Assembly: GCA_050015375.1 (NCBI GenBank) | Contig: JBEKBN010000005.1 | Span: forward strand, 1,858-65,857 | From: Minisyncoccia bacterium | GTDB taxonomy: Bacteria; Patescibacteriota; Minisyncoccia; 2-02-FULL-40-12; IGHO2-01-FULL-4-A | Reading direction: 5' to 3' | Length of the DNA: 64,000 nucleotides | Shown here: in pieces, positions 29,112 to 54,129 of the stretch | How positions within the stretch are numbered: position 1 is the first letter of the stretch | Layout: every line of letters begins with the position of its first letter | Notes under the pieces: model-generated | The model's database searches: none | What the model was told of the DNA's origin: nothing | What the model saw: only the letters and a program-made list of their open reading frames with translations | Program-made: the position numbers and the translations under genes

Positions 29112-30590
29112 ATGGATTTGAAAAATCTGACAATCAAATCATTGCGCGACGGCTACGCCAAAAAAGAATTCACACCCGAAGAGATCCAGAAGGAGTTTTT
29201 GAAATTGATAGAGAAAGAAAATCCGAAACTCAACGTTTTCTTGTCTGTTTCCGAGAATCTCACCCATGATTCAAAATTCATGATTCATGATTCAATTCTT
29301 ACCGGTGTTCCATGCGCGATCAAGGATAATATTATGACCAAGGATTCGATCACCACCGCCGGCTCAAAAATTCTGAAGCATTACAAAGCGCCATACGATG
29401 CTACGGTGATCAAACTTTTGAAAAAACACGGAGCGATTTTTTTGGGCAAAACAAATATGGACGAATTTGCCATGGGTTCGACCACCGAAAATTCCGCTTT
29501 CGGGCCGACGAGAAATCCTCATGACCATGATCGCGTTACCGGCGGTTCATCAGGCGGTTCGGCGGCGGCTGTGGCTTCGGGGATGGCCGTCTTTGCTCTT
29601 GGTTCGGATACCGGCGGTTCGATCCGGGCGCCGGCATCTTGGTGCGGAGTTGTGGGTTTGAAGCCGACTTACGGAAGAGTTTCGCGCTACGGTCTCATTG
29701 CTATGGCTTCCAGTTTGGACCAGATAGGACCCATTACCAAAAATGTAGAAGACGCGGCCATTGTCATGAACGCCATTGCCGGCCACGATTCGATGGATTC
29801 AACGAGTTCACCCCCACACTCAAAATTTGAGTGTGGGGGCGAGCCAAAAGACACCCCCGATTTCACGAAAAATCTTGGCAAATCCATCAAAGGATTAAAA
29901 ATCGCCATCGCCAAAGAATTTTTCGGTTCACCTCCACACTCAGCGACTGAGTGTGGGGGCAAGGGTTTGAATTCAGAAGTGGCCGATGCCATCGAGAAAG
30001 CGATTTCAAAACTCCAATCCCAGGGCGCTCATATTGACTATGCCAGTTTGCCGTTGACGGACTATTCCATTGCTGTCTATTATATAATCGTGCCGGCGGA
30101 AATTTCAGCGAACCTGGCAAGGTTCGATGGCATCCGTTACGGCCATTCGTCGGTGAAAGGTAAAAATCTGCTTGACACCTATCTTGATTCCCGCGAGGAA
30201 GGTTTTGGCGCCGAGGTCAAACGCCGGATAATGCTCGGCACTTATACTTTGTCAGCCGGTTATTATGATGCTTATTATTTGAAAGCCCAAAAAGTCCGGA
30301 CTCTTATCAGACAAAGTTTTGACAAAATTTTTGAACATTATGACGCCATTATCGGTCCGACCATGCCTACGATCGCGCCTAAGATCGGGGAATACAACGA
30401 CCCATTGACTTTTTACATGGCTGATATTTACACCTGCCAGGCGAATCTGGCCGGACTGCCGGCGATTTCCGTGCCTTGCGGGTTCATTGAAACCGGTGGC
30501 AAAAAACTTCCGGTCGGTTTGCAGATCATCGGCAAACATTTTGACGAAGAAACGATTTTACGAATAGCCAATGCTTACTCGAATTCATAA
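29112..30590 (+). CDS. gatA: Asp/Glu-tRNA amidotransferase subunit A (amidase signature)
   Basis: GGSSGGSAAAVA amidase signature. Start taken at MDLKNLTIK. Contains two in-frame palindrome inserts. Confidence 0.9.
   Translation: MDLKNLTIKSLRDGYAKKEFTPEEIQKEFLKLIEKENPKLNVFLSVSENLTHDSKFMIHDSILTGVPCAIKDNIMTKDSITTAGSKILKHYKAPYDATVIKLLKKHGAIFLGKTNMDEFAMGSTTENSAFGPTRNPHDHDRVTGGSSGGSAAAVASGMAVFALGSDTGGSIRAPASWCGVVGLKPTYGRVSRYGLIAMASSLDQIGPITKNVEDAAIVMNAIAGHDSMDSTSSPPHSKFECGGEPKDTPDFTKNLGKSIKGLKIAIAKEFFGSPPHSATECGGKGLNSEVADAIEKAISKLQSQGAHIDYASLPLTDYSIAVYYIIVPAEISANLARFDGIRYGHSSVKGKNLLDTYLDSREEGFGAEVKRRIMLGTYTLSAGYYDAYYLKAQKVRTLIRQSFDKIFEHYDAIIGPTMPTIAPKIGEYNDPLTFYMADIYTCQANLAGLPAISVPCGFIETGGKKLPVGLQIIGKHFDEETILRIANAYSNS
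29811..29839. repeat. 29-bp perfect palindrome cccccacactcaaaatttgagtgtggggg, in-frame in gatA
   Basis: Encodes SPPHSKFECGGEP. Confidence 0.85.
29931..29959. repeat. Palindrome cctccacactcagcgactgagtgtggggg (same family), in-frame in gatA
   Basis: Encodes SPPHSATECGGKG, 120 bp from the first copy. Confidence 0.8.
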
Positions 30591-30599
30591 TTTTTTACC

Positions 30600-31142
30600 A
30601 TGAGTTGGATGATCTTATTCCATAATATCACCGCTTCCATTTCAAGTTTTATTTCCGGACTGGATCTGGCGGTTTGGCTTTCATATTTTAAAGATGTAAT
30701 GATATTCATCTCAATAATTTTTGGGATTTTGTTTGTGGTCTTGATCTTTAAACTTCGGTCGTTGATAAAAAGCAGAGTCGAGGAGATCGAGACCGAACTA
30801 AAATCGCCAGCTGAAGCCATAACGACCTATGATATTCGTTGGGACGAGATCAAAAAACATGTCCAGTCATTCAACGAAGCTGAATGGAAAATGGCCGTCA
30901 TCGAAGGCGACAAATTCACAGATGACGCGCTTAAGGCCGGCGGCTACGCCGGAGAATCCATGGGCGAACGGCTGATGCTGATCGAACCGGGCCAGCTTTT
31001 GTCTTTGCAAAATCTGTGGGACGCCCACAAATTAAGGAATCTTCTGGTTCACGACGCCAACTACCAGCTCGATCATCGCCAAGCGGTCATGGCCATCGAG
31101 GCCTTCGAACAAGCGTTGAGAGAATTGGGGGCGCTGTCATAA
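30600..31142 (+). CDS. Hypothetical membrane protein
   Basis: Two N-terminal TM helices. Confidence 0.4.
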   Translation: MSWMILFHNITASISSFISGLDLAVWLSYFKDVMIFISIIFGILFVVLIFKLRSLIKSRVEEIETELKSPAEAITTYDIRWDEIKKHVQSFNEAEWKMAVIEGDKFTDDALKAGGYAGESMGERLMLIEPGQLLSLQNLWDAHKLRNLLVHDANYQLDHRQAVMAIEAFEQALRELGALS

Positions 31143-32806
31143 TGCTACACCGTTCTCAAGTTTTTTTGCTGATCATGCTGGCCTTCATCAGCGGTATTTT
31201 TTTGGGCTCGTTCGTTTCGGTTGATCAAAAATATGTTTGGATCGCCATAGCGATCTGCGCGGCCGCGGTCGCTGTTTTTTTTCGGCGCGACTCCAAGCTT
31301 CTTCGTCCGAAGGTCGCTTTTTACGCTTTTTTGGCCCTGATCTTCCTGTTCGGTTTTTCCCGCATCAACACCACGAACTCTGAAAAACATTTGCTCCAAG
31401 AATTCGCCAAAGCCGCCGCCAACATCAAAGATCCTTCAGGTAAACACAAAGTTAAGATTGACCTCATCGGCTATATCAACAACGAACCATCCCGCGGCGC
31501 CAAAATGCAATCATTTGTTTTTAAATCGAAGGAATTGATCTCTGGCAATTACTCCGCCGATACCGATGAAAGCGTTTTGGTCAACACCGATTTTTTTCCG
31601 GAGTACAAATATGGCCAAAAACTCGAGATCTACGGAGAATTGCAATTGCCGTCGAGCACGGCCAGCCCCCACACTCAAAATTTGAGTGTGGGGGCCAGTT
31701 CCTCGATGGACCCCGTTAGAGGCAAGACACCGTCCCAGGTGTCTGCCGACACGCCTTCGGCGGGGCGGGCCTCTAACGGGGTGGATTACGCCGCTTATCT
31801 CGCCAAAGATGATATTTTCACGACGATGTATCAGCCGATGATAAGACAGGTTGATTTCAATTTTTCTTTTTTTGAAAAATATAAAGTTGCGATTTTGCAA
31901 AAAATATTCACTTTCAAATCGGCTTTTGAAACAGCCGTAAGCAAAGCCATTCCCGAACCCAACGCCGCTTTCGTCAACGGAATTTTGCTTGGCAGTCGAG
32001 CCCAAATTCCGGATGCTCTCAAAAATGATTTTGCCATCACCAGCACAACCCACATTCTGGCCATCTCCGGTTTCAATATTACCATCGTCGCCGGAATTCT
32101 CGCTTCATTTTTTCTTTTCTTTTTCAAACGCCGGACGGCATTCTGGTTCGCCATCGCCGGCATCGCACTTTTCACGATCCTGACTGGCGCCCAGGCCTCG
32201 GTCATTCGGGCGGCGATCATGGGCTGTTTGTTCTTGCTGGCAACGCGAGTTGGTAGGCCTTACACTGCCCGAAACGCCGTAATATTCGCCGGCGCCTTGA
32301 TGGTTTTGCTAAGCCCGGAAATTTTACGATACGATGTAGGTTTTCAGCTTTCTTTCATGGCAACTTTGGGTCTGATATATCTCTGTCCGTTTTTCACCGA
32401 CAAATTCAAAAAGATCACAAATTTTTTCGGTCTGCGAGAGAATCTAGCCATGACATTATCGGCGCAAATTGCCGTTCTTCCTCTTCTGATATTTTATTTC
32501 AACCGATTGTCAATTGTTTCTCTGCCAACAAATCTTCTGGTCTTGCCGATGGTGCCCCTGGCGATGCTCTTGGGTTTCGTCGCCGGATTGGCCGGGATGA
32601 TCTTGCCATTTTTGGGCGTCATTATCGGATATTTCGCCTGGTTTTTGACTGCGATACAGCTCTGGTTGGTGGAATTTTTTGCCAAGCCGTCATGGGCGGC
32701 GCCGGCGGTTGCTTTTCCGTGGTATGCTTTGGCGATAACTTATGTGGTCATGATTTTTGTGATCTACAAATGGATTTATGCTCGGCCCAAACCAAAACAA
32801 AAATGA
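31142..32806 (+). CDS. comEC: ComEC/Rec2 competence protein, membrane channel part (DUF4131 plus competence domain)
   Basis: Multi-TM. ATG 31142 (MLHRSQVFLL) is preferred over the track start at 31016. Contains one palindrome and one MITE in-frame. Confidence 0.75.
   Translation: MLHRSQVFLLIMLAFISGIFLGSFVSVDQKYVWIAIAICAAAVAVFFRRDSKLLRPKVAFYAFLALIFLFGFSRINTTNSEKHLLQEFAKAAANIKDPSGKHKVKIDLIGYINNEPSRGAKMQSFVFKSKELISGNYSADTDESVLVNTDFFPEYKYGQKLEIYGELQLPSSTASPHTQNLSVGASSSMDPVRGKTPSQVSADTPSAGRASNGVDYAAYLAKDDIFTTMYQPMIRQVDFNFSFFEKYKVAILQKIFTFKSAFETAVSKAIPEPNAAFVNGILLGSRAQIPDALKNDFAITSTTHILAISGFNITIVAGILASFFLFFFKRRTAFWFAIAGIALFTILTGAQASVIRAAIMGCLFLLATRVGRPYTARNAVIFAGALMVLLSPEILRYDVGFQLSFMATLGLIYLCPFFTDKFKKITNFFGLRENLAMTLSAQIAVLPLLIFYFNRLSIVSLPTNLLVLPMVPLAMLLGFVAGLAGMILPFLGVIIGYFAWFLTAIQLWLVEFFAKPSWAAPAVAFPWYALAITYVVMIFVIYKWIYARPKPKQK
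31666..31694. repeat. Palindrome cccccacactcaaaatttgagtgtggggg, in-frame in comEC
   Basis: Flanked by (g)ccag on both sides. Confidence 0.85.
31711..31781. mobile_element. MITE-like element (CCCCGTTAGAGGC termini), in-frame in comEC, TSD TGGA
   Basis: ccccgttagaggc...gcctctaacgggg. Confidence 0.7.
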
Positions 32807-33686
32807 TCTGACGAATGGTCACAAAGCGATCTCCCGACTCGAATGGTATGTTTTTTCGGTGATTTTGGTCGCGGCAATTCTAAGTTTCATTGCCGTCAAT
32901 GCCCAGGCCATCGGCGACGGATATTTGCGGATATATTTTCTCGATGTCGGCCAGGGCGATTCCGAATTCATCCAAAATTTCAACGGCAACCAGGTTTTGA
33001 TAGACGGCGGACCAGACGACAAGGTCTTGTCCGATTTGGCCAAGGTCATGCCCATCAATGACCGCTCTATCGACATGGTCATCCTGACCCATCCGCATTC
33101 CGACCACGTCACCGGCCTCATCGATGTTTTGAAAAGATACCAGGTCGGACAAATTTTGGAAAATAATTATCCCTACCAGGCGCCCGTTTACGACGAATGG
33201 AATAAAATAAAAACCAATTCTGTCGTCACTCAAGCAGTGGCCGGGCAAGTCGTTGACCTTGGCGGGGGAGTGAAGATGACCGTGGTGTTTCCGGGTGTTT
33301 CCGAGGCCGGCAAGTTCAACAGCAATCCCAATAATACTTCCGTCGTCACTCGGCTGACGTATGGCGATGAGTCAGTTTTGTTCACCGGCGACATTGAAGC
33401 GCCGGTGGAGAAAAAATTGACGCTCAATGGCAGTATCCTTGATTCTGATTTTTTGAAAATCGGCCATCACGGTTCGCGGACTTCGACAACGGAGGATTTC
33501 TTGAACGCCGTGACGCCAAAAGTCGCTTTTATCGAAGTCGGAGCCGGCAATACTTTCGGCCATCCGAATCAGGAAGTCCTCGACCGGCTTGCAAATCACG
33601 GGATAAAATATTATCGTACAGATAAGGACGGCACGATAGAACTGATTCTTGACGGTCAGTCCTTTTCAACCAAGGAGAACATATGA
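32778..33686 (+). CDS. ComEC C-terminal metallo-beta-lactamase domain protein, separately encoded
   Basis: ILTHPHSDHVTGL MBL motif. Overlaps the upstream comEC ORF by 29 nt in another frame. Confidence 0.7.
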   Translation: MLGPNQNKNDLTNGHKAISRLEWYVFSVILVAAILSFIAVNAQAIGDGYLRIYFLDVGQGDSEFIQNFNGNQVLIDGGPDDKVLSDLAKVMPINDRSIDMVILTHPHSDHVTGLIDVLKRYQVGQILENNYPYQAPVYDEWNKIKTNSVVTQAVAGQVVDLGGGVKMTVVFPGVSEAGKFNSNPNNTSVVTRLTYGDESVLFTGDIEAPVEKKLTLNGSILDSDFLKIGHHGSRTSTTEDFLNAVTPKVAFIEVGAGNTFGHPNQEVLDRLANHGIKYYRTDKDGTIELILDGQSFSTKENI

Positions 33687-34198
33687 GCAAAGATAAACTC
33701 GAAAGAACATTGGTCTTGTTAAAACCCGATGCCATCCATCGGGGAATTACCGGCGAGATAATCACCCGGTTCGAGAGGATCGGGGCAAAGTTGGTCGGTC
33801 TGAAATTGTTGGTTTCGGAGCGTGACACGGCCGAGAAACACTATACCGAGGATTTGGCAAAACGACGGGGCGAACGGGTTCGCCAGCTTATGATAAAAAT
33901 GCTGACTGCGAGCCCGATTGTAGCCATGGTTTGGGAAGGCGTTGAAATTGTTGAAGTCACCCGCAAAATTGTCGGAGAAACCGAGCCCCAAAAAGCCCTT
34001 CCGGGAACAATTCGAGGCGACTATTCCCATGTTTCATATGCTTATTCAGACGCGAAGAAAATCGGCGTTTTTAATCTGATACACGCTTCGGCTTCACCGG
34101 AAGAAGCGGAGGTTGAAATCGGAGTTTGGTTCAAACCCGAAGAATTAGTGAACCACAAACCCTATTATACTCGACTGACCTTGCGTGAAGACGAATAA
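33683..34198 (+). CDS. ndk: Nucleoside diphosphate kinase
   Basis: TLVLLKPDAIHRGITGEIITRFE... Confidence 0.9.
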   Translation: MSKDKLERTLVLLKPDAIHRGITGEIITRFERIGAKLVGLKLLVSERDTAEKHYTEDLAKRRGERVRQLMIKMLTASPIVAMVWEGVEIVEVTRKIVGETEPQKALPGTIRGDYSHVSYAYSDAKKIGVFNLIHASASPEEAEVEIGVWFKPEELVNHKPYYTRLTLREDE

Positions 34199-34226
34199 CT
34201 AGCTGACTTTCGGGTCAGCTTTTTTC

Positions 34227-34733
34227 TTGATGGGAAACAAAAACGAAAATAAACTAGATCCCAGATTGCATTTCGTGGTTGCGACAGCTATAATCCACCG
34301 AAAGAGAAAAGACAAGACCCGCGAGTATTTAATATTGAAGCGGGCGGCGCATGAAAAAGCATTTCCCAACCGCTGGACCGTGCCCGGCGGAAAACTGGTC
34401 CTTCACGAATACGAGAAACTGCCCAAGACAACTATTTCACAATGGTACAACGTCGTTGACTGGGTCTTGAAAAAAGAGGTCAAAGAGGAGGCCAATCTTG
34501 AGATCCACCAGCCGGAATATCTCTGCGACCTGACTTTCGTCAGGCCGGACGGCTATCCGGTGGTAACCCTTTCATATTTCGCCAAATACAAAAAAGGCAT
34601 TGCCAAACCCGGAAAAGATTTAACAGACCACGCCTGGGTCACCCTCAAAGAAGCCAAAAAATACGACCTCATCGAAGGCATTTGGAACGAAATCAAAGAA
34701 GTCGAAAAGATACTCAAATCAAAATCCCGCTGA
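34227..34733 (+). CDS. Nudix hydrolase
   Basis: Nudix-box-like GGKLV...KKEVKEEANLEI. Confidence 0.6.
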   Translation: MMGNKNENKLDPRLHFVVATAIIHRKRKDKTREYLILKRAAHEKAFPNRWTVPGGKLVLHEYEKLPKTTISQWYNVVDWVLKKEVKEEANLEIHQPEYLCDLTFVRPDGYPVVTLSYFAKYKKGIAKPGKDLTDHAWVTLKEAKKYDLIEGIWNEIKEVEKILKSKSR

Positions 34734-34795
34734 TTGCGGGATTTTGATTTAGTCGGGCTGCGGGGAATCGGCTTCGATCTCATTCCGTTTTGTTG

Positions 34796-35071
34796 TTATT
34801 TGAATGGTTTTCCGTACTTGATTAAATATTCTTTCTTTTCACGACGCCATTTCTTAATTTGTGTTTCTCTTTTTCTAGCATTGAGCAGGTCTGGATGTTC
34901 TTCTTTGTAAACCAGTTGAAATGTTTTGTTTCTTTTTGTAAATTCAGCTCCTTCTCCTTTTTGATGCCTTTGAATCCTAGCTTCAATATTGGAAGTTGTT
35001 CCAATATAAATATGGTCTCGCGGTCCTCGGAGAATATAAACGAAGTAACTAGAATTGTTGGTCGAAGACAT
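34796..35071 (-). CDS. GIY-YIG nuclease-domain protein
   Basis: YFVYILRG...IYIGTTSNIEARIQRH. The track ORF extends over the tRNA; ATG 35071 is chosen as the start. Confidence 0.6.
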   Translation of the reverse strand: MSSTNNSSYFVYILRGPRDHIYIGTTSNIEARIQRHQKGEGAEFTKRNKTFQLVYKEEHPDLLNARKRETQIKKWRREKKEYLIKYGKPFK

Positions 35072-35147
35072 TGAGCAGCAAAGCGAAAGAAATGAGCAGA
35101 GCTTCGACAAGCTCAGCTCATTTCGCCACGCTTTGCGTGTCGAAATG

Positions 35148-35218
35148 TCGGGCCGTGGGGAATCGAACCCCAGCTGCAAGACCCCCAGCCTCGCGTACTA
35201 CCATTATACGACGACCCG
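35148..35218 (-). tRNA. tRNA-Pro (anticodon GGG)
   Basis: Minus-strand fold: acceptor cgggtcg/cggcccg (C1:G72), anticodon stem cgagg/tcttg, loop cuGGGgg, T arm tgggg-ttcgatt-cccca, discriminator A73. Confidence 0.75.
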
Positions 35219-35235
35219 AAATTATTGTTTTGTTC

Positions 35236-35931
35236 TCACAAACCTTCCGGAAATTTCCCTCCCCTAAACACGAAACGCGTTTCTTCGGTTTCATTTTCTC
35301 CCAAATATTCTTCCGGAAATACCGATTTAGGCATTCTTAAAATTAAATATTTTATTTGTTGAGGCAGCAAATCTCCGCTCACGTGCCGGCAAAAATTTTC
35401 TCTGAAAGCGGTATCTCTTATATCTGTATCGCCGGCTTTAGCTTTTCCAACTTCTATTGGTTCAACTTGAAGATTTCCCGGTTCAAACCCGATCAAGGAT
35501 CGGATATCAAAAGCAATTAATAATTTTATTGGCCCGGGCGCTCGGGCTTCAGCAAAGGCGATTTTTACGCCTTCCAGCTCAGGGATCACCGCATTAGCGT
35601 AATGATCTTTTCTGTCACCAACATGAATGGGCCGGTGGTCAATTATTGATTCAAAGATTTTGCTCATACTCTCGCATCGCAACATTAACCCCTCTTTTTT
35701 CATTGAATCATAAATTTTGGCGACATCGCCCGTGAGTTCCATCTTTATAATACTTTCAAGAAAGAAAAAAACCCTCTTCAATATCTCTCTAGCTTCCTCG
35801 GGAGTTTTTGAGTTTTCTAATTGTCTAGCCAGAGTTGTTATTATAGACCGATCAACGTCCTCTAATTTTTTCACCGGTGTGTTCGGTTCCTGCGTGGTTT
35901 TTTCAAAACTGTTCATTTTGAATTTATTCAA
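35236..35931 (-). CDS. Hypothetical protein
   Basis: 231 aa, no recognised motif. Confidence 0.4.
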   Translation of the reverse strand: MNKFKMNSFEKTTQEPNTPVKKLEDVDRSIITTLARQLENSKTPEEAREILKRVFFFLESIIKMELTGDVAKIYDSMKKEGLMLRCESMSKIFESIIDHRPIHVGDRKDHYANAVIPELEGVKIAFAEARAPGPIKLLIAFDIRSLIGFEPGNLQVEPIEVGKAKAGDTDIRDTAFRENFCRHVSGDLLPQQIKYLILRMPKSVFPEEYLGENETEETRFVFRGGKFPEGL

Positions 35932-35956
35932 TTTTTTTGAGGAGATTTACGAACCG

Positions 35957-36145
35957 CTAGGTCTTGGCGACTTTAGCTTGGGCTTTGAGGCAGGAAGTGC
36001 AGATCTTGATTCGCTTGCCGTCAACTCGTGCCCATTGCAAATTCGGATATTTTTTGTACCGATTCACGATATTATAATTTCCGCGCAGTAGCTTGCGCTT
36101 GTTGGCCATCACCGGTTTTTTTCCGCAAATAGGACACTTAGTCAT
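35957..36145 (-). CDS. rpmB: 50S ribosomal protein L28
   Basis: MTKCPICGKKPVMANKRK...PNLQ...CTSCL, the L28 Cys pattern. Confidence 0.8.
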   Translation of the reverse strand: MTKCPICGKKPVMANKRKLLRGNYNIVNRYKKYPNLQWARVDGKRIKICTSCLKAQAKVAKT

Positions 36146-36182
36146 GATTTACATCATATCCTAAAGATGCTAAATTAGCAAT

Positions 36183-36791
36183 ATGTCCCCGCTGGAAATC
36201 ATATTTTTAATCGTCGTTTTCCTGTATTCCGTGGTTTTGCACGAAGTATCCCACGGTTTCGTGGCTTACAGCATGGGCGACAACACGGCCAGGGATCTCG
36301 GCCGATTGACCCTTAATCCGCTCAAACATCTGGACTTTTTCGGTTCGATAATTTTGCCGTTGTTTCTTTTTCTGGTGGGCTCGCCGTTCTTGTTCGGCTA
36401 CGCCAAGCCGGTGCCTTACAATCCGCTGAATCTCAATGACCGAAAATACGGCCCGGCCAAAGTTGCCATCGCCGGCCCGATAGTCAACTTCATCCTTGCG
36501 GTCATGTTCGGGCTGGTTTTGAGGTTTTTGCCGAGTTCCACCGGTCCAGCTTTGCCGATCCTTCTGGGTTATATCGTCCAGATCAATTTGTTGCTGGCGA
36601 TATTCAATTTAGTGCCGATTCCGCCGCTTGACGGCCATTGGATATTGTTCACTTTTTTGCCGGCCAGATTCGACCATGTCAGGCAAACCCTTAGCCGCTA
36701 CGGCATTTTTATATTACTGATCTTCCTGTTCTTTATTTTCCCGTTCATCCTGCCCTTGATTAATTTTCTTTATAGAGTTATAGTTAATTAG
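36183..36791 (+). CDS. Site-2 protease family zinc metalloprotease (M50-like)
   Basis: HEVSHGFVA HExxH inside a multi-TM protein. Confidence 0.75.
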   Translation: MSPLEIIFLIVVFLYSVVLHEVSHGFVAYSMGDNTARDLGRLTLNPLKHLDFFGSIILPLFLFLVGSPFLFGYAKPVPYNPLNLNDRKYGPAKVAIAGPIVNFILAVMFGLVLRFLPSSTGPALPILLGYIVQINLLLAIFNLVPIPPLDGHWILFTFLPARFDHVRQTLSRYGIFILLIFLFFIFPFILPLINFLYRVIVN

Positions 36792-36810
36792 CGTCTGAGC
36801 ACAGGCGAAT

Positions 36811-36939
36811 GAAATGAGCCGAGCACAGAAACGATAATTAACCCAGCACATATTTTACCATAAGAGGCGAGACCAGTTTGGCAATGGAGGTTATTGGTAA
36901 TTGCCCTCGCTATTGAGGGTTTTGTTTGCGGTAAAATAT
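36811..36939. other. Long imperfect inverted repeat / structured leader upstream of rpsL
   Basis: aacccagcacatattttacc (36840..36859) pairs with ggtaaaatatgtgctgggtg (36920..36939). Pairing extends further (aaatgagc / gctcattt). Confidence 0.5.
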
Positions 36940-40459: not shown

Positions 40460-40650
40460 AAAATCCCGGACCAGGCTCACCGGATTGCTTTCCGGGGACT
40501 TAGGAAATCCCAGCGAGATTTCCGTCATCCGGTTGTCAGTTGCCGTCACTGATTGACGGCTTTTTGATTTCACAAAAAGCCGTCAATCAGACCCTGCCGA
40601 CGGCACCGACAACGGCCCCTGAAAGCAATCCGGTTCGCAGGGATTTTCAA
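40460..40650. repeat. 191-bp palindromic repeat element, copy 1 (about 98% identical to 53025..53215)
   Basis: Arms aaaatcccggaccaggctcaccggattgctttccgggga...cccctgaaagcaatccggttcgcagggatttt. Centre carries a bidirectional terminator-like hairpin gattgacggctttttgatttcacaaaaagccgtcaatc. Confidence 0.85.
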
Positions 40651-45249: not shown

Positions 45250-45579
45250 ATGGGTAAAAAATTATATGTCGGCAGCTTGCCTTACAGCACGACCGATCAA
45301 CAGCTGAAAGAACACTTTTCCGCAGCTGGAACAGTGGAAACAGCGACGGTCATTTCCGACAAGTTCTCCGGCCGGTCCAAGGGCTTCGGTTTCGTCGAAA
45401 TGTCGACGGACGAGGAAGCTCAGAAAGCCATTGAGATGTTCAATGGAGCGGACATGGGCGGCAGGAACATTGTCGTGAACGAGGCGAGACCGTTGGAACC
45501 CCGCGCTCCTCGCGCCGGCGGTTTCAACAGAGGCGGCGGAAGCCGCGACCGCGGCTTTGGCGGCGGCAGGGACTACTAA
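45250..45579 (+). CDS. RRM-type RNA-binding protein with Gly/Arg-rich tail
   Basis: RNP-1 KGFGFVEM and RNP-2 LYVGSL. Confidence 0.85.
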   Translation: MGKKLYVGSLPYSTTDQQLKEHFSAAGTVETATVISDKFSGRSKGFGFVEMSTDEEAQKAIEMFNGADMGGRNIVVNEARPLEPRAPRAGGFNRGGGSRDRGFGGGRDY

Positions 45580-45587
45580 CCTTTCAT

Positions 45588-45613
45588 CCCCACGCTCACG
45601 CGTGAGTGTGGGG
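45588..45613. repeat. Palindrome ccccacgctcacgcgtgagtgtgggg (variant of the CCCCCACACTC family), intergenic
   Basis: One mismatch between arms. Confidence 0.6.
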
Positions 45614-45630
45614 ACAAGCCAAAACTCAAG

Positions 45631-45657
45631 AGGCGCTCGAAAGGGCGCCTTTTGGTT
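45631..45657 (+). terminator. Rho-independent terminator after the RRM gene
   Basis: aggcgc-tcgaaag-ggcgcct plus tttt. Confidence 0.65.
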
Positions 45658-46663: not shown

Positions 46664-46681
46664 CAGGCATATTAAAAGCAA

Positions 46682-46706
46682 AGGCCGCTCGAATGAGCGG
46701 CTTTGT
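46682..46706. terminator. Bidirectional terminator
   Basis: aaggccgctc-gaat-gagcggcttt. Confidence 0.65.
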
Positions 46707-46728
46707 CTACTGCGTTTACCACACAACT

Positions 46729-47004
46729 TCAGCTCAGCGGTTCGACAAGAACCTCATATGACCCGCACCTCAAACAATTCCTCGCGAAATTCTCCAGGGT
46801 CGGAGCACGAAGGGTAATGCTCTCGGGATCCCGGCCCTTAATCGGTTTGACGTGAATAAGCGCTTGACCCTGGACTGGAGTTTCAGCGTCTTTTGGAATT
46901 CTGGGGATAAGTTCTAGCCCGGCTTCCTGTACCATGTCTTCGATGTTTGCAAGGGCGTGATCAAGCGATCTATTCGCCGGACCAGTTATCAGCATATTGA
47001 ACAT
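46729..47004 (-). CDS. Hypothetical protein
   Basis: 91 aa. Confidence 0.3.
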   Translation of the reverse strand: MFNMLITGPANRSLDHALANIEDMVQEAGLELIPRIPKDAETPVQGQALIHVKPIKGRDPESITLRAPTLENFARNCLRCGSYEVLVEPLS

Positions 47005-47105
47005 CTATCTTTCTCCTTCTCTAGTGTTCCGTGTGTGGTTGACAAAATGAACTATTGAGTATATTACTCTTTTTGAAAAAAGATGTCAATTGTGAATAAG
47101 TGCCA

Positions 47106-48476
47106 CTACTCCCAAGACGAGAACCAGACGCGGGCGTTGTACGCTTTCGTGGTCAACGGCAGACCATAGATAATAGGCGCGAAGAAAAGAAACACGATCG
47201 CCGAGAGAACGATTATGGTTGTCAGGATGGCTTTGTTGAATTTGAACCGGTCAATAATGAATACCAGGGCCAAAATGGCGAAGATGAGCGCCGACATGTA
47301 ATGATACAAGAACATTGCCCGGGTGATGCCGATGAAAGGAAGGAGATTGAACAAATAACCGCCGGCGATGAGAAGCGGAAAAGGCGACCCAATGAATTTT
47401 TTGAAGAGTCCGAGGATGAGCTTCCAGCCCCACATCAGCAAACCGTAAAAGATCGCCACCGAGGAAAGCCACCAGATCAGCGGATTGCCGATCAGATATA
47501 TCCGCGAAGCCATGCCGTTAAAATTGTCGTGGAACCAATAATATATCGGCCGGGTCATGAACGGCCAGGTGTACCAGGCGCTCTGGTACGGATGGGTGGC
47601 GGTGAGGGTGGCGTTGGCGCGGTACATTTCAATGTTCAACTCCACGAATTCGCCGATGAGCCCGATCGGTTTCACATTCGGATTTTGGGCGTAGACACTG
47701 CCGACCAAATTTTTTTGGAATGACGGAGTCATAAAAGCATCGCCCGGACCGCTCTTGGTCAGAAGTTTCAAATGAACGGCGAAGATCGAGAAATAAATGA
47801 CGACCGGAACAACAACTACCGCCGCCAGAATATTGCCGATGGAGACAAGGAGTTTCCGTTCTTTCAGTGTTCTGATGATATTGATCGCCTCAAGGATGAA
47901 GATCAGCCCCAAAAAAGACGCGCCAGTCCACTTGACCGACATTGAAAGCGCGCCCAAGATGCCGGCAAGATAAAGATAATTTATTTTTTTCTCCTGGTGA
48001 TATTTGAAATACGCGAGCAATGCCGAAAAGCCGAACAAAAGCAGAAACGAATCTAAAAGGATGAATCGTGACTGGACCAAAAGCGAACTTTCAAGAGTAA
48101 CGAACATACCGGCGGCGAAGGAACCGAATTTGGAAATTCCCAGTCGCAAAGCCAGAAAGAAAATAATTATCGGCAGAAGCACGCCGGCCAACGTCGGCAG
48201 GAGTCGGAGCCAAAGATATGAATTGTCGGGGAATTTCTGGCCGATTTCGGCGTAGCTGAAACCGGGCTTGAATCCGGTCAGATAACCGACGCCGGAAATG
48301 AGCAGTTTACCTAGCGGCGGGTGGATATCGAAAAAATATTGATGGGTAAAATAGCCGGAAATGAACTTGCCGAAATGAACCTCGTCGAAAACGGTCTCGT
48401 TGGGATGGCCGTAATAGGCGAAATGGACGACCAGGGTCGCGACGATGAGAATTATCAGCAGAAGATGTTTTTTCAT
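47106..48476 (-). CDS. Membrane glycosyltransferase, GT39/PMT (ArnT-like) family
   Basis: Multi-TM; HFAYYGHPNETVFDEVHFGKF...DIHPPLGKLL matches the PMT N-terminal loop. Confidence 0.75.
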   Translation of the reverse strand: MKKHLLLIILIVATLVVHFAYYGHPNETVFDEVHFGKFISGYFTHQYFFDIHPPLGKLLISGVGYLTGFKPGFSYAEIGQKFPDNSYLWLRLLPTLAGVLLPIIIFFLALRLGISKFGSFAAGMFVTLESSLLVQSRFILLDSFLLLFGFSALLAYFKYHQEKKINYLYLAGILGALSMSVKWTGASFLGLIFILEAINIIRTLKERKLLVSIGNILAAVVVVPVVIYFSIFAVHLKLLTKSGPGDAFMTPSFQKNLVGSVYAQNPNVKPIGLIGEFVELNIEMYRANATLTATHPYQSAWYTWPFMTRPIYYWFHDNFNGMASRIYLIGNPLIWWLSSVAIFYGLLMWGWKLILGLFKKFIGSPFPLLIAGGYLFNLLPFIGITRAMFLYHYMSALIFAILALVFIIDRFKFNKAILTTIIVLSAIVFLFFAPIIYGLPLTTKAYNARVWFSSWE

Positions 48477-48507
48477 ATATAATTATGATATAATAATCCC
48501 ATATTTT

Positions 48508-49482
48508 ATGAAAGTTTATGATTTGATCATTATCGGAGGATCTGCCGCCGCTACCAGCGCCGGCATCTATGCCGCCAGACGCGGCTTGGATTTTTTGATC
48601 CTGACCAAAGAATTCGGCGGGGAAGTCGCGACATCGGGCGAGATCGGCAACTGGCCCGGCGTCAACAAAACCGACGGCATCACATTATCGCGGCAATTCA
48701 AAGAACACCTCAAGTCGTATAAAGTCGAACCCCGGGAAGGCGTCGAAGTGGCGAAGATCACCAAACAAGAAGACGATCTGTTTTGCGTGACCGTTAAGAC
48801 CGATGGCGAGAAAATGGTTTCCGATAAAATGCTTGTCGAGGCCGATGCTGTTCCCAAATGCGATTATGTTTCGAGAACCGTCATTGTAGCCACGGGCGTT
48901 CATCCCCGAACTTTAGGTATTCCCGGCGAAAAAGAATTCCGCAACAAAGGTTTGAGCTATTGCACCGTTTGTGACGGTCCGCTTTTCGCTGGTTTGACGG
49001 CGGCGACCATCGGCGGCGGCAATTCGGCGCTGGAATCGGCCCTGATGCTTTCGGATATTTGCAAAAATGTCATCGTCATCAATAAAAACCATATTTTTAA
49101 AGGCGAAGAGGTGCTGATCAATAACCTCAAAACCAAGAAAAATGTCGAGATCATTTATGACGCGTTAACCACAGAAATCATTGGCAATGAATTCGTTTCT
49201 GGGTTAAAATATATCAAGGACGGTAAGTCGGAAGAGGCAGCGGTCAATGGCGTTTTCGTCCACATTGGCATGACGCCAAACAATAAGCTCGTTCCCGATA
49301 ACGTTGTCAAAAATCAAGTCGGCGAGATCGTAGTCAATCGAAATTGTGAGACCAACATCCCCGGGCTTTACGCCGCCGGCGACGTCACCGATACGCCTTT
49401 CAAGCAAATCATCATTGCCGCCGGTCAGGGGACGATCGCAACATTATCAGCGGTGCAATATTTGAATAAAATAAAAATTTGA
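48508..49482 (+). CDS. trxB: Thioredoxin-disulfide reductase
   Basis: FAD motif IIGGSAAATSAG, redox CTVCDG, NAD GGGNSALE. ATG 48508 (MKVYDL) chosen. Confidence 0.8.
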   Translation: MKVYDLIIIGGSAAATSAGIYAARRGLDFLILTKEFGGEVATSGEIGNWPGVNKTDGITLSRQFKEHLKSYKVEPREGVEVAKITKQEDDLFCVTVKTDGEKMVSDKMLVEADAVPKCDYVSRTVIVATGVHPRTLGIPGEKEFRNKGLSYCTVCDGPLFAGLTAATIGGGNSALESALMLSDICKNVIVINKNHIFKGEEVLINNLKTKKNVEIIYDALTTEIIGNEFVSGLKYIKDGKSEEAAVNGVFVHIGMTPNNKLVPDNVVKNQVGEIVVNRNCETNIPGLYAAGDVTDTPFKQIIIAAGQGTIATLSAVQYLNKIKI

Positions 49483-49486
49483 AATT

Positions 49487-49966
49487 ATGACGATCTATAT
49501 CGGTACCGATCATAAAGGTTTCAGAATAAAGGAAAAGGTCAAAGCGTGGCTGACCGACTGGGGTTATGACATCGAGGATGTGGGCGCCCACAGTTTGGAT
49601 CCGGACGACGACTATCCGGATTACGCTTCCCAAGTGGCTGCCAAGGTCTCCGCCGATCCTGGAGAAACCAAGGGCATAATATTGGGCGCTACCGGCGAAG
49701 GCGAAGCCATTGTGGCCAACAAATATAACGGCGTCAGGTGTAGTGTTTATTATGGCGGGCCGGAAGAGATTGTCGCTTTGTCCCGCGACCACAGCGACGC
49801 CAATATCTTTTCCATCGGAGTTCTGTTCTTAGACGAAGAAACTTTGAAAAAAATGATAAAATTGTGGCTTGAGAAACCGTTCAGCGGAATGGAAAGACAC
49901 ATCCGGAGATTGGCGAAGATCAAAGAGATCGAAGCCGAGTTTGGCGAACAACACAAGAAAGCTTAA
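49487..49966 (+). CDS. rpiB: Ribose-5-phosphate isomerase B
   Basis: MTIYIGTDHKGF... Confidence 0.85.
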   Translation: MTIYIGTDHKGFRIKEKVKAWLTDWGYDIEDVGAHSLDPDDDYPDYASQVAAKVSADPGETKGIILGATGEGEAIVANKYNGVRCSVYYGGPEEIVALSRDHSDANIFSIGVLFLDEETLKKMIKLWLEKPFSGMERHIRRLAKIKEIEAEFGEQHKKA

Positions 49967-49968
49967 TA

Positions 49969-50417
49969 TGAAAATCTATATCGGAGCGGATCATCGAGGA
50001 TTCGCCCTGAAAGAAAAAATAAAAGTTTGGCTGGCGAATTGGAACTACCAATCAGAAGATGTCGGCGCTTTTGAGCACAATGAAAGCGACGACTACCCGG
50101 ATTTTGCCGAACTGGTCGCTAAAAAAGTCGCCGCCGATGCCGGGAGCAAGGGAATTTTGCTTTGCGGCTCCGATATCGGCGTAACCATTGCCGCCAACAA
50201 AATAAAAGGCATCCGTGCCGGCGGCGCGACCATCGCCGAGCAGATCCAAGCGGCGGTCTATGATGACGATATAAATGTCTTAACGATCGGCGCCGACTAT
50301 CTGAACGAAGAACAGGCCAAAGAAATCGTCAAAATTTTCTTGGAGGCCAAATTTTCCAACGGCCGGAGGTTCGTCAGACGAATTGAAAAGATCAATAATT
50401 TAGAAAAAAATAATTAA
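49969..50417 (+). CDS. rpiB: Ribose-5-phosphate isomerase B, tandem paralog
   Basis: MKIYIGADHRGFALKEK. The track ORF starts earlier at 49869. Confidence 0.8.
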
Positions 50418-50428
50418 CTTTTCATAAT

Positions 50429-51400
50429 ATGGCAAAAGTATTTGTGACAAGACCCATTCCCGAAGCCGGAATAAATTTGCTGAAAAGCAAAGGATTTGAG
50501 ATCGTCGTCAACGAAGCGGCGGCTGACCGGGTAGCGACAAAGGAAGAACTGATTGCCGGTGCCGCTGGCGCCGATGCAATACTCTCGGTCCTAACTGATA
50601 ATATTGATGCTGATGTCATAGCGGCGGGATTACCGGCATTGAAGATCGTGGCCAATTTCGCCGTCGGCTATGATAATGTTGATGTCAAAACCGCCAAAGA
50701 AAAAAATATTTTTGTGACCAACACGCCCGGCGTTCTGACCGAAACGGTGGCCGAACATACCTTCGGTCTTTTAATGGCCATCAGCCGGCGGATCCCGGAA
50801 GGGGACAAGTTTGCCCGCGCCGGCAAATATACCGCTTGGGGACCGAAACTGCTTTTGGGCACTGACATGGCCGGGAAAACCCTCGGCATTATCGGTCTTG
50901 GCAGGATCGGCTCGCGGGTCGCCCATTTTGCCATCAGGGCTTTGGAGATGAAGGTCATTTACACCGATACCAAACCCAATCCTGAATTTGAAAAAGAATA
51001 CGGAGCAGTTTTCGCGCCGACAGTTGATGCGCTTTTACCTCAAGCCGACTTTGTTTCCATTCATGTCCCTATGCTTGAATCAACAAGGCACCTGATGAAC
51101 GAAGCCAGATTTAAACTAATGAAAAAGTCGGCTTATCTAATCAATACCGCCCGCGGACCGATCGTGGACGAACTTGCTTTGGCGGCCGCTCTGAAAAATG
51201 GCACCATCAAAGGCGCGGCGATCGATGTTTTCGAATTCGAACCGAAAATTTCGCCCGAATTGATCGCTTTGGATAATATCGTCATGACTCCCCACACGGC
51301 CTCGGCCTCGGAAGAAACCAGAGATAAAATGGCGATCATGGCCGCGACAAATATAATAGAAGTTTTGGAGGGCCGAAACCCGCCAAATCCAGTTCAATGA
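50429..51400 (+). CDS. D-isomer-specific 2-hydroxyacid dehydrogenase (glyoxylate/hydroxypyruvate reductase-like)
   Basis: GIIGLGRIGSRVA NAD-binding motif and family architecture. Confidence 0.85.
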   Translation: MAKVFVTRPIPEAGINLLKSKGFEIVVNEAAADRVATKEELIAGAAGADAILSVLTDNIDADVIAAGLPALKIVANFAVGYDNVDVKTAKEKNIFVTNTPGVLTETVAEHTFGLLMAISRRIPEGDKFARAGKYTAWGPKLLLGTDMAGKTLGIIGLGRIGSRVAHFAIRALEMKVIYTDTKPNPEFEKEYGAVFAPTVDALLPQADFVSIHVPMLESTRHLMNEARFKLMKKSAYLINTARGPIVDELALAAALKNGTIKGAAIDVFEFEPKISPELIALDNIVMTPHTASASEETRDKMAIMAATNIIEVLEGRNPPNPVQ

Positions 51401-52032
51401 GCGTTGAAATAATTCCGTCAATTTTGGTCAAAACCAAAGAAGAGTTCCTGGACAAAGTTATCACGATTGAACCTTACGCCGATCAGGCGCACATTGACGT
51501 TGCCGACGGGATATTCGTGCCCAACATGACCATTGACGGGGTTGAAGAGCTGGAAGAAGTCGAATCAAGTTTGCGATTTGGCGTCCATTTGATGGTTTCC
51601 AAACCGGAAAATCACATCCATCGCTGGCTCCAAACCCAAGTTGAGAGAATAGTTTTTCATATCGAGGCCACTAAAAAATCCCGAGAGATAATTGACGCCG
51701 CCAAGGAAGGCGAAAAATTGATCGGTATCGCTTTGAATCCCAAAACGCCGGTTTCCGAGATCGAACCTTTTGTTGATTCGGTTGATTTCGTTCATTTCAT
51801 GACCGTTGAGCCGGGTTTCAACGGCGGCGCGTTCGTGGACAGCGTCATTGATAAAATTTCCGATTTTCATTATTTCTATCCCGACAAGGAAATTGAAGTT
51901 GATGGCGGGGTGACGCCTGAGACCGCGCCGCGACTCATCGCCGTCGGCGCGACGCTTTTAGTCGTCGGAAGTTATATTTGGCAAAATCACGATGCCGGAA
52001 AAGCGATTGAAAATTTAAAAAATTTGATTTGA
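51397..52032 (+). CDS. rpe: Ribulose-phosphate 3-epimerase
   Basis: HIDVADGIFVPNMTID. Confidence 0.85.
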   Translation: MSVEIIPSILVKTKEEFLDKVITIEPYADQAHIDVADGIFVPNMTIDGVEELEEVESSLRFGVHLMVSKPENHIHRWLQTQVERIVFHIEATKKSREIIDAAKEGEKLIGIALNPKTPVSEIEPFVDSVDFVHFMTVEPGFNGGAFVDSVIDKISDFHYFYPDKEIEVDGGVTPETAPRLIAVGATLLVVGSYIWQNHDAGKAIENLKNLI

Positions 52033-53018
52033 TCATGCCCCATAAATTTGATGTCATCTCCCTCGGTTCCTCGACTCGCGATGTCCTCTTGAAAAGCGGT
52101 TACTTTGAGACGCGCAAACATGGCGATTCACCGACGGGAGTGGAGCAGTGTTTTCCTTTGGGTACGAAACTGGAGATCAAAGAGATATATTTTACCACTG
52201 GCGGCGGCGGACACAACGCGGCGGTGACATTTGCCCGGCAAGGTTTCAAAACGGCTTGCGTTGGCGTCATCGGCGACGATATCACCGGTCAGGAAATAAT
52301 CTGGGAATTGAAAAAAGAAGGCGTCAACGCCGACATGTTCCAGAAACATGCCGAAGGCCATTCGGCCTACTCGATAATCATGGTTCATCCGAACGGCGAG
52401 CGGACAATTTTGAGTTACAAAGGCGAGGGCCAGCATTTCGATGTCAAAAAAATTCCTTTGGAAAAAATGGATTCGGAATGGCTGTATCTGGATTCAATGG
52501 GCGGCCATTACGACTTGATGTGGTCGGTGGTCAATCACGCCGTCAAGAACGGGATCAAGATCGCTTTCAATCCCGGCGGCAAAGAACTCGAGCACGGACT
52601 GGAAAGATTGAAACCAATTTTGCGCCACATTGATGTTTATCTCACAAACAAAGAAGAAGGCGCTGAGTTACTGAAAGTCAAATCCCAGAATTGGGGGATC
52701 GTTTTGGAAAAATTGTCGAAACTCGTGAAAGGCGTAGCCATCGTTTCGGACGGCCACAACGGAGTTCGGGTATCGGACAAAAGAAATATTTACAGCGCCG
52801 GCGTGCCCGATTCGCCGGTCATTGAGAGAACCGGCGCCGGAGATGCGTTCGGTTCGGGATTCGTCAGTGAGTTCATGCGGGTGGGAAATATTACCAAGGC
52901 CATTCAATTCGCGACGGCCAACGCTTCATCGGTAGTGACGAAATTCGGGGCCAAGGCGGGGATTCTCAAAAAAGGGGATTGGGGACCGTGGAAGCTGGTT
53001 GAGGTCAGCAAAAAGTAG
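52029..53018 (+). CDS. PfkB-family carbohydrate kinase (ribokinase-like)
   Basis: GGGGHNAAV ... TGAGDAFGSGFV. Confidence 0.8.
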   Translation: MIMPHKFDVISLGSSTRDVLLKSGYFETRKHGDSPTGVEQCFPLGTKLEIKEIYFTTGGGGHNAAVTFARQGFKTACVGVIGDDITGQEIIWELKKEGVNADMFQKHAEGHSAYSIIMVHPNGERTILSYKGEGQHFDVKKIPLEKMDSEWLYLDSMGGHYDLMWSVVNHAVKNGIKIAFNPGGKELEHGLERLKPILRHIDVYLTNKEEGAELLKVKSQNWGIVLEKLSKLVKGVAIVSDGHNGVRVSDKRNIYSAGVPDSPVIERTGAGDAFGSGFVSEFMRVGNITKAIQFATANASSVVTKFGAKAGILKKGDWGPWKLVEVSKK

Positions 53019-53024
53019 TTAATT

Positions 53025-53215
53025 AAAATCCCGGACCAGGCTCACCGGATTGCTTTCCGGGGACTTAGGAAATCCCAGCGAGATTTCCGTCATCCGGTTG
53101 TCGGTTGCCGTCGCTGATTGACGGCTTTTTGATTTCACAAAAAGCCGTCAATCAGACCCTGCCGACGGCACCGACAACGACCCCTGAAAGCAATCCGGTT
53201 CGCAGGGATTTTCAA
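53025..53215. repeat. 191-bp palindromic repeat element, copy 2
   Basis: Inserted at the centre of a pre-existing palindrome gcaaaaagtagttaatt | aattaactactttttgc that includes the kinase stop codon. Confidence 0.85.
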
Positions 53216-53229
53216 TTAACTACTTTTTG

Positions 53230-54100
53230 CTGTTGTATTCGGTTGGTTAAAACAAAAGACCCCTGTCCAAATGGATCAGAGGCCGGAACCCTACAGAAGC
53301 CGTTCGGTTATTTCAGCTTCTTTGCCTTTTGTTTGTCGGCAGGTTCGGATTATGTATGATGTGAGTCCCATTTTACTCCACGGGTTTCTCACGATGTCTG
53401 CCAACCGAAAGGTCAGGCACCTGAAGGATTTTCACCTTCTAAAGATCTATGATTGCGGGCCCGCCTGCCGCAGATCGGGAAACCCGACAAAAACTGCGGC
53501 AGGACAGGTAAATGGGAACATTTGTTCGCATTGGGAGGCGAACCTTCCGGAGTTCCCGACCCGGAAATGACACGAACAATGATGAACCAGTGGGCGACCG
53601 CTCCAAAAAATGGGTGGCCCGTCATCATCTGATGTTCGTGCCGGTGGTGCGAGTTACACCAGATTGTGGGTGACCCGATTGAACGGGAACCCTATGTCCA
53701 AGCGTAACTCGCGCCGGTGTACGGGAGCTACCGATACATTGAGTGGCTACTTCGTGCCTTTTTTTACGAAGTGCCTGCACTGATAACTCTCGCACAAGTC
53801 GGTCTTGCCGTGGAGAAGGCCAGGGCGCCGGTCGTCAGGAACTCTTCATTTTCAAAGAAATGGAAAGGGTCAAAACCTTCATAGGCGTATTCCTCGCTAT
53901 GCTAGCGGAAAAAGGGGTGGGCACGGCTGTGCGCCACCACGGTTTCAGAGAAAAACACTGATGTGATAAGTTGGGTCTGGCATTTATGCGGGTGGGAAGC
54001 GCGCCAGACCCTATTTGCGGGGTAGTCCCGGCCCACCACATCTCCCAAAACATATTTAATTGTTAATGTATCCAGTATAGCACAACCATATATCCTGTCA
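53230..54100. other. ORF-free GC-rich structured region of about 870 bp; candidate large ncRNA(s)
   Basis: No ORF over about 75 aa on either strand. Segment 53780..54045 resembles the RNase P RNA P4-P5 region (aaguc...ggccagggcgcc) but lacks full consensus. Confidence 0.25.
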
Positions 54101-54101
54101 A

Positions 54102-54129
54102 CCCCCACACTCAAATTTGAGTGTGGGGG
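54102..54129. repeat. Palindrome cccccacactcaaatttgagtgtggggg, intergenic
   Basis: Family member; see 29811..29839. Confidence 0.85.

Follow-up and report, generated by a model that had tools for sequence, protein, structure and literature searches.

What are the short, perfect palindromes that lie both between genes and, in frame, inside genes of a 64,000-nucleotide stretch of a Minisyncoccia bacterium genome (contig JBEKBN010000005.1, positions 1,858 to 65,857)? This whole stretch, here called the window, belongs to a bacterium of the Parcubacteria/Paceibacteria type and contains type IV pilus genes, ligA, gatCAB and comEC, and the closest relatives of its GatA protein come from metagenome-assembled genomes (MAGs) of Paceibacterota and Yanofskybacteria. 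The palindrome is real, non-random and widespread. We favor, with a probability of about 0.7, its reading as a non-autonomous mobile element of the Patescibacteria, or Candidate Phyla Radiation (CPR), which resembles a miniature inverted-repeat transposable element (MITE), consists of terminal inverted repeats (TIRs) only and duplicates 4 bp of its target.

The palindrome family in the window and across the CPR

Five palindrome copies were verified in the window at the places where an earlier note on this sequence had seen a repeat family; three have the exact form CCCCCACACTCAAA(A)TTTGAGTGTGGGGG and two are variants (CCTCCACACTCAGcgaCTGAGTGTGGGGG at 29931-29959 and TCCCCACGCTCACGCGTGAGTGTGGGGA at 45587-45614). 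The paired-arm pattern has 4 matches in the window vs. 0 in dinucleotide-preserving shuffles, and a 14-mer allowing 2 mismatches has 9 matches vs. 0.43 in such shuffles. Two copies are located inside gatA, which encodes subunit A of the Glu/Asp-tRNA amidotransferase (plus strand, open reading frame (ORF) 29082..30590, from the ATG 29112..30590). Copy 1 (29811-29839) is a 29-nt perfect palindrome with the arms CCCCCACACTCA and TGAGTGTGGGGG and the centre AAATT. Copy 2 (29931-29959) is a 29-nt variant, CCTCCACACTCAG cga CTGAGTGTGGGGG, flanked by TTCA (29927-29930) and CAAG (29960-29963) with a net gain of 33 nt. Since the arm at copy 2 reads a perfect CCCCC in a 96.7%-identical strain (L106), the CCTCC of copy 2 is a recent C>T change. 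Copy 3 (31666-31694), also a 29-nt perfect palindrome, lies inside a comEC-type competence channel gene (31142..32806, plus strand, with PF03772 and DUF4131) between perfect CCAG repeats at 31662-31665 and 31695-31698; its net gain of 33 nt is read as SPHTQNLSVGA. The in-gene, in-frame positions of these three copies are thus as the earlier note had described them, whereas its word "essential" is an assumption in the case of comEC.

The two remaining copies are outside genes. Copy 4 (45587-45614) is a 28-nt variant, TCCCCACGCTCA CGCG TGAGTGTGGGGA, flanked by TTCA and CAAG. It is located in a 3' untranslated region, 8 nt past the stop codon of an RRM RNA-binding protein gene (45250-45579), with a terminator downstream at 45626-45655, and is unchanged in a 97.7%-identical strain. 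Copy 5 (54102-54129) is an intergenic 28-nt perfect palindrome with the centre AATT, whose flanks TCAA and TTAA agree as a direct repeat at 3/4 positions; it adjoins a minus-strand promoter-like site, the -35 box of which (TTGACA) occupies 54101-54096. Folded as RNA, each window copy gives a hairpin of 12-14 bp with -22 to -30 kcal/mol and z from -4 to -9 (-30.3 kcal/mol and z -9.1 for copy 1, -23.2 kcal/mol for copy 2). Two k141 assemblies of the window population (L116 and L117) stop 140 nt short of the first gatA palindrome, at 29671, which suggests that the palindromes break de Bruijn-graph assemblies.

For the earlier note, confinement of the motif to this window would have refuted its reading. 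A scan of one genome per species (185,579 species) with the pattern CCCACACTCA-N0-12-TGAGTGTGGG matched 89 loci in 8-kb blocks, so the motif extends far outside the window. Copies with full 12-nt arms are almost all in MAGs of Patescibacteria, from Yanofsky-, Falkow-, Azam-, Lloyd- and Nomurabacteria, unclassified Parcubacteria/Paceibacteria and Saccharibacteria; at least six named candidate phyla in addition to Saccharibacteria carry the palindrome, with a maximum of 7 copies per MAG. The element consists of two perfectly complementary 12-nt arms, YCCCCACACTCA and TGAGTGTGGGGR, with C or T as the first base, around a centre of 0-12 nt. The commonest centre, TGCA, is present in 24/61 copies over different genomes and sites, giving CCCCCACACTCATGCATGAGTGTGGGGG as the dominant full form. 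The AAA(A)TTT centre of the window lineage represents a minor subfamily, and a metagenome scan for a centre of AAA(N0-2)TTT found 7 loci. The length is 28 nt in 40 and 29 nt in 11 of the 61 copies. Recurrence of the TGCA centre indicates that the 28-mer itself has been copied rather than left behind by independent deletions. Solitary arms were found neither in the window nor in the loci, save in a 148-nt possible relative (L028) and for one arm in L055.

Matches in cyanobacteria, Firmicutes and Actinobacteria have no CCCCC ends and look like unrelated hairpins or another repeat family. The repeat gacatactCCCACACTCA-N10-12-TGAGTGTGGGcttctt of Moorena, Calothrix and Nostoc (L042, L051, L052, L053, L062, L065, L068 and L071) has a 10-nt arm core in common with the palindrome but other ends and constant flanks, and is probably an unrelated family. 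In viral contigs, the palindrome has 3 chance-like matches. A full-text literature search returned no description of the palindrome sequence or of MITEs in the CPR, and the family appears to be undescribed in the searchable literature.

Target-site duplication and the reading frame

A perfect 4-nt direct repeat abuts the element in 24/64 non-redundant copies, compared with 0-2 copies at control offsets of 1-8, and in a further 11 copies the flanks agree at 3/4 positions. These target-site duplications (TSDs), among them TTGA, TTTA, TAAA, TTCA, CAAG, CTCG and CCAG, have the form T..A or C..G in 20/22 cases. By position, the flank profile is Y (-4), T/A (-3) and R (-1), and several targets are cTTGACa or T-tracts behind terminator stems. 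A 4-nt duplication of symmetric form implies staggered 4-bp cleavage of a symmetric target, i.e. a signature of transposition. The preference extends to the 39 copies lacking a perfect TSD, in which 47/78 flank 4-mers are of the form T..A/C..G vs. 12.9% of control 4-mers (p ~1e-22). In five further copies the flanks are inverted 4-mers that lengthen the palindrome. The earlier note had seen no obvious target duplication apart from the ccag flanks in comEC, which holds for part of the window copies, where CCAG at the comEC copy is the sole perfect TSD, but not for the family as a whole.

The gatA copies encode the peptides SPPHSKFECGGEP and SPPHSATECGGKG. Both are 11-residue insertions that are lacking in the GatA proteins of S. 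aureus and Aquifex, whose structures have been solved, and also in the closest CPR homologues (70-74% identity); otherwise they are present only in a 98%-identical protein of the same species. In the alignment with the solved structure (2DF4/2F2A) they fall after P242 and after G269. The in-frame copies are therefore true insertions and not residues shared among orthologues, which the earlier note had named as a possible refutation. Copy 1 together with CGAG (29840-29843) makes up a 33-nt, 11-codon insertion behind the native AGT TCA. A reading of this copy as CGAG-TTCA-core-CGAG with a CGAG duplication was rejected, as 37 nt does not fit the 11-residue gap. Placed on an AlphaFold2 model of GatA (predicted template modelling score 0.87), both inserts (residues 234-245 and 273-283, with the ATG at 29112 as residue 1) have predicted local distance difference test values below 50 and no secondary structure, and are thus predicted to sit in unstructured loops. 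In comEC, copy 3 and a 71-nt element of a longer family (31711..31781, TIRs CCCCGTTAGAGG...CCTCTAACGGGG, TSD TGGA), which begins 16 nt downstream, both fall in the linker that separates DUF4131 from the Competence domain. The 71-nt element is likewise in frame (71+4=75 nt), and the ComEC homologue of a related genome is without the ~37 residues that the palindrome and this element encode in the window.

The frame is kept according to simple arithmetic. The four in-ORF palindromes outside rsmA (two in gatA, one in comEC and one in the membrane-protein gene of L034) are all 29 nt long, giving a net 33 nt; the probability of drawing four 29-mers by chance from 11/61 is ~6e-4. The 29-mer has a stop codon in one of its three frames, and the in-ORF copies use the other two only. 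The in-ORF members of the longer family measure 80, 80, 80, 71 and 68 nt, and each length plus four is a multiple of three. In-frame tolerance in GatA, which the earlier note had called striking, is real, and its cause is that 29 + 4 = 33 nt were placed in unstructured loops.

The copy in rsmA follows another path. In several other CPR genomes, a 28-nt copy is located at the same codon of the RsmA loop QKEVAQRIMA-KPPHMNLL. The DNA reads GC-TTCA-(28-mer)-CAAG. Some alleles have one additional G directly after this (CAAG-G-CCGCCGAAGATG), others one additional T 6 nt further on (CAAG-CCGCCC-T-CATATG), and either +1 change restores the frame of the native GCC AAG CCG CCN. The alleles look as a 32-nt insertion with differing later +1 compensations would be expected to look. 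The ksgA/rsmA gene is dispensable in E. coli, and such dispensability would permit a path through a frameshift and its later compensation. Another allele (P0146) retains TTCA and 9 nt of the left arm, and is best read as the putative scar of an in-frame 33-nt deletion. The rsmA arms are identical between orthologues of only 48% protein identity; repeated insertion, horizontal spread of the allele or constraint on the DNA would be needed for this. Birth of the palindrome in rsmA from native CCCCCACAC-like codons was set aside, given that >100 homologues have K/R there and that the S-containing P0146 is best read as a deletion scar.

In further CPR lineages, different in-frame inserts, either unrelated or decayed, occupy the same loops of GatA and RsmA (homologues P0019, P0029, P0056, P0069, P0084, P0097, P0105, P0116, P0123, P0142, P0144, P0180, P0182, P0189, P0204 and P0227). 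One example is the insert NPVRGKTP...SNGM, from the CCCGTTAGAG family, and at the same site of GatA P0069 has a 27-nt palindrome that is imperfect, CCCTCCGAAGCCTCTGGCGAAGGAGGG. Both loops are hot spots of insertion.

Longer elements, a possible transposase and rival explanations

The window contains a second, longer family with related ends. Nine elements of 68-197 nt begin and end with YCCCGTTAGAG...CTCTAACGGGR (4294-4413; 11239-11435, with 11260-11337 nested in it; 11860-11939; 12597-12676; 13190-13269; 14133-14200; 31711-31781; and 59412-59479). A perfect 4-nt TSD is present in 8/9 (TGAA twice, CTAA, CTTG, TTCA, TTTA, TGGA and TTGA), and in 11/13 when four elements from other CPR loci (L019, L046, L050 and L080, including a Saccharibacteria MAG) are added; viral contigs had 0 matches. 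Five of the window elements are in frame in ORFs, namely in three paralogous ORFs (11826-13788), in comEC and in a phosphoglucomutase gene (59017-60405). The YCCC...GGGR termini and the 4-nt TSD are common to the palindromes and the longer family. Common termini together with the same length and type of TSD suggest that one kind of transposase probably moves both. In addition, a possible longer relative of the palindromes is a 148-nt MITE-like element in a Saccharibacteria MAG (L028, 1642-1789) with 19-nt TIRs, CCCCCACACTGATTGACAT.

Under the mobile-element reading, a transposase acting in trans would recognise the YCCC... ends and make 4-bp staggered cuts at symmetric YNNR targets. The same enzyme would also move the longer YCCCGTTAGAG-ended MITEs of the window, and its gene would be located elsewhere, or in other genomes. 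A hairpin or cruciform form may join the two ends of so short an element. The copies of the window species would be old, fixed passengers of no demonstrated function.

Several observations weigh against this reading. No transposase, Y1_Tnp or REP-associated tyrosine transposase (RAYT; REP, repetitive extragenic palindromic) was detected in Pfam scans of ~50 window ORFs. Clustering of the genes neighbouring 59 palindrome loci gave no recurring gene except rsmA, itself the host of a copy, and neither the window nor ~100 loci yielded an autonomous unit bounded by TIRs, with YCCC ends and a TSD. Polymorphism between empty and filled sites was not seen either, as window-population contigs from seven samples, including strains of 96.7-97.7% identity, have the same copies, among which 1/86 compared bases differs. 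The copies are thus fixed and older than the divergence of these strains; orthologous empty sites are present in more distant genomes. The conservation of the arms is in part a matter of ascertainment, the scan pattern having demanded perfect 10-nt arms. A duplex of 28 bp is too short and stiff for both of its ends to be held in one conventional transpososome complex. Moreover, ~60% of the copies have no perfect TSD, and 18 of the 39 copies without one have mosaic flanks, i.e. two differing T..A/C..G 4-mers such as TTCA...CAAG, which plain cut-and-paste transposition with gap filling does not predict. Four copies (gatA-1, gatA-2, the 3' untranslated region copy at 45587 and rsmA) have TTCA as one flank and CAAG or CGAG as the opposite one. 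Orthologue comparison at the first gatA site and in rsmA showed one native and one foreign flank, with a net gain that again equals the element plus 4 nt. At the first gatA site TTCA is native and CGAG (29840-29843) foreign, since the closest homologues read DSTSS-P there, with the native S encoded in AGT TCA; in rsmA, TTCA is the foreign flank, and C-AAG with its lysine codon is native. Recombination between copies cannot account for mosaics within intact genes.

The mosaic flanks would be covered by a more specific mechanism, in which the 28-mer is the minimal substrate of a piggyBac-like CPR transposase and is excised with its 4-nt flanks as overhangs. PiggyBac itself is described as forming a hairpin on the transposon ends, duplicating TTAA and leaving no footprint on excision (PMC8151067). 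By analogy, the flanks would be heteroduplex after integration, donor against target 4-mer, and would resolve to either, while cruciform extrusion of the perfect palindrome would join the ends. This would explain the mosaics in 18/39 copies, the native and foreign flanks at the first gatA site and in rsmA, and the gain of element plus 4. However, we consider the mechanism doubtful because the longer family has almost only perfect TSDs.

Among explanations without such a transposase, a hairpin that benefits the host and is kept by selection, as a CPR-wide protein site, a terminator or insulator, or an RNA stability element, with mobility secondary or absent, would fit arms that are identical over very distant lineages and even in rsmA orthologues of 48% identity. 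Many of the intergenic copies have a T-rich tract behind them or a TTGACA box next to them, and one copy lies between a stop codon and a terminator. However, copies are also located inside unrelated coding genes and in two different frames, they have TSDs and no fixed place relative to genes, the centre varies over 0-12 nt and half-sites do not occur alone, all of which makes selection for a host function an unlikely origin. Slightly less probable still are immobile scars, left at each site by internal deletion of a longer MITE or insertion sequence (IS) with the same ends. In their favour are the L028 element, with its related 19-nt TIRs, and the occurrence of centres of 8-12 nt; but independent deletions would leave mixed centres, in contrast to the TGCA of 24/61 copies, a longer precursor in gatA would also have had to be in frame, and the exact CCCCCACACTCA arm was not found in any longer relative. 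The earlier note had proposed REP-like elements or targets of a REP-associated transposase. The copies do form a dispersed family of short, hairpin-forming and mostly intergenic palindromes that behaves like selfish DNA, but their spread by a Y1/HUH tyrosine transposase is very improbable. REPs and IS200/IS605-type Y1 transposition make no target-site duplications, whereas 24/64 copies have perfect ones; the GTAG/CGTC head is missing, the four positions next to the arms following a variable YWNR pattern; the Pfam scans of ~50 window ORFs gave no Y1 match, and no neighbouring gene recurs at the 59 loci; and the identical sequence over distant CPR lineages is unlike the species-specific REPs.

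Two further explanations are hardly credible. Local inverted duplication or template switching at each site could be suspected from the native rsmA loop (KPPH, CCN CCN CAY), which resembles the arm, and a sequencing or assembly artefact from the two k141 contigs that break before the gatA copy. However, the same 28 nt are found at >60 unrelated sites in assemblies from many laboratories, the copies are identical in independent samples of one population, and those inside genes keep the reading frame. Similarly, pairs of DNA-uptake signals for competence would suit the comEC and type IV pilus genes, which occur in the CPR and are both present in the window, and in its length of 28 nt and its 6-nt core the palindrome is similar to dif sites. 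Against uptake signals or multi-copy Xer/dif-like 11-6-11 sites stand the lack of single arms in the window and the loci, the low density of 5 copies per 64 kb, the many copies with a centre of 0-12 nt vs. the fixed 11-6(8)-11 architecture of dif with one site per replicon or module boundary, and the TSDs, which tyrosine recombinases do not make.

In L055, the gene of an 89-aa GIY-YIG nuclease (PF01541) lies between the single arm, CTCCCACACTCA at 2080, and two tandem palindromes of 36 nt each (2359-2394 and 2408-2443). A GIY-YIG nuclease as a general partner of the palindromes was dropped: such genes are near few other copies, and the GIY-YIG gene of the window (34796-35179) has no palindrome nearby.

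Other repeats, implications and known systems

The region 53100-54100, next to copy 5, comprises ~1.1 kb with no ORF >100 aa and no Rfam or tRNA match (Rfam and tRNA scans returned four tRNAs only). The strong minus-strand promoter-like site leading into it consists of TTGACA (54101-54096), a 16-nt spacer, TG and TATACT (11/12), and the region may be an unannotated non-coding RNA. A repeat of ~150 nt occurs twice in the window (40489-40641 and 53054-53206) and holds an identical 42-nt hairpin, CTGATTGACGGCTTTTTG...CAAAAAGCCGTCAATCAG, at 40549-40590 and 53114-53155; the metagenome contig L093 matches it at 13586-13721 with 82% identity. Two related near-perfect palindromes of 38-40 nt at 28075-28112 and 28708-28745, TTCGTTCCATTATGAACAT followed by ATGTTCGTAATGGAACGAA and TTCATTCCATAATGAACATA followed by TATGTTCATTATGGAATGAA, surround a PaaX/Cas2-like gene (28219-28695) and look like operator sites. 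GC-rich perfect palindromes of 31 and 42 nt (1772-1802 and 1884-1925, e.g. GGTCGGCGGCACCGGCCGCG..CGCGGCCGGTGCCGCCGACC) are located inside a ComF-like minus-strand ORF (1732-2514) with phosphoribosyltransferase and double zinc ribbon domains.

If the mobile-element reading is true, mobile DNA can shrink to a pair of 12-bp ends, which raises the question of how the ends of a 28-bp duplex meet, and points to a transposase active across the CPR. Should the piggyBac-like mechanism hold, no smaller mobile DNA than the palindrome would be known, it would represent a case of bacterial seamless cut-and-paste, and part of the CPR loop insertions would be explained. Such inserts are carried by GatA, ComEC, RsmA, phosphoglucomutase and pilin-like ORFs, making the elements a source of protein loop insertions in the CPR, and survival of an in-gene insertion is predicted by a simple rule, namely that the element length plus 4 is a multiple of three and that no stop codon arises. 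The palindromes probably break short-read assemblies and can mimic frameshifts, as the 32-nt insertion in rsmA does, a matter of importance for the annotation of CPR MAGs. The elements could also mark horizontal exchange among CPR lineages.

Compared with known systems, the palindrome is like REP sequences and REPINs in being of 20-40 nt scale, hairpin-forming and dispersed. A REP, however, is an imperfect, species-specific palindrome that has a GTAG/CGTC head (as defined in PMC3733652), makes no TSD and is linked to a Y1 transposase gene, and none of these features was found for the palindrome. Rickettsia palindromic elements are likewise in-frame palindromic inserts in housekeeping genes of a host-dependent bacterium with a reduced genome (PMC10969869). 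They are ~150 bp long, encode ~30-50 residues and are described from Rickettsia only; the palindrome, which adds 11 residues, is about five times shorter, has clear 4-nt TSDs and resides in Patescibacteria, and is set apart by these descriptions. Suyama et al. (2005) reportedly found short palindromic repeats with coding potential inside genes of Methanocaldococcus jannaschii, with the frame unbroken; those repeats are said to differ in organism and sequence and to occur as clustered copies. The piggyBac/IS1380 DDE transposons share with the palindrome the 4-bp TSD and the symmetric target, and their termini begin CCC...GGG, as those of the palindrome do. However, no transposase of this type was found in the Pfam scans of the window, and the target of the palindrome is relaxed (TNNA/CNNG) instead of TTAA, so that the likeness would be one of possible mechanism and not of membership.

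MITEs are roughly 50-400 bp long, whereas the palindrome measures only 28-29 bp, two 12-nt TIRs with a 4-5-nt centre that together form a perfect palindrome, and to our knowledge is smaller than any MITE. We also know of no parent IS for it, unlike for MITEs. Its sequence is the same over whole candidate phyla, and many of its flank 4-mers are mosaic and non-identical, in which it again differs from MITEs. Of the characters by which MITEs are recognised, TIRs, a TSD of fixed length and dispersed non-coding copies (28 nt encodes no protein) are present; a related autonomous IS with matching ends was not found in the window and the ~100 loci, and empty sites were seen in more distant genomes but not among strains of the window species. 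Like the Correia, ERIC and RUP elements among prokaryotic MITEs, the palindrome is non-coding and multi-copy, has TIRs and a TSD but no transposase of its own, and is mostly intergenic and sometimes fused in frame to genes (PMC10969869).

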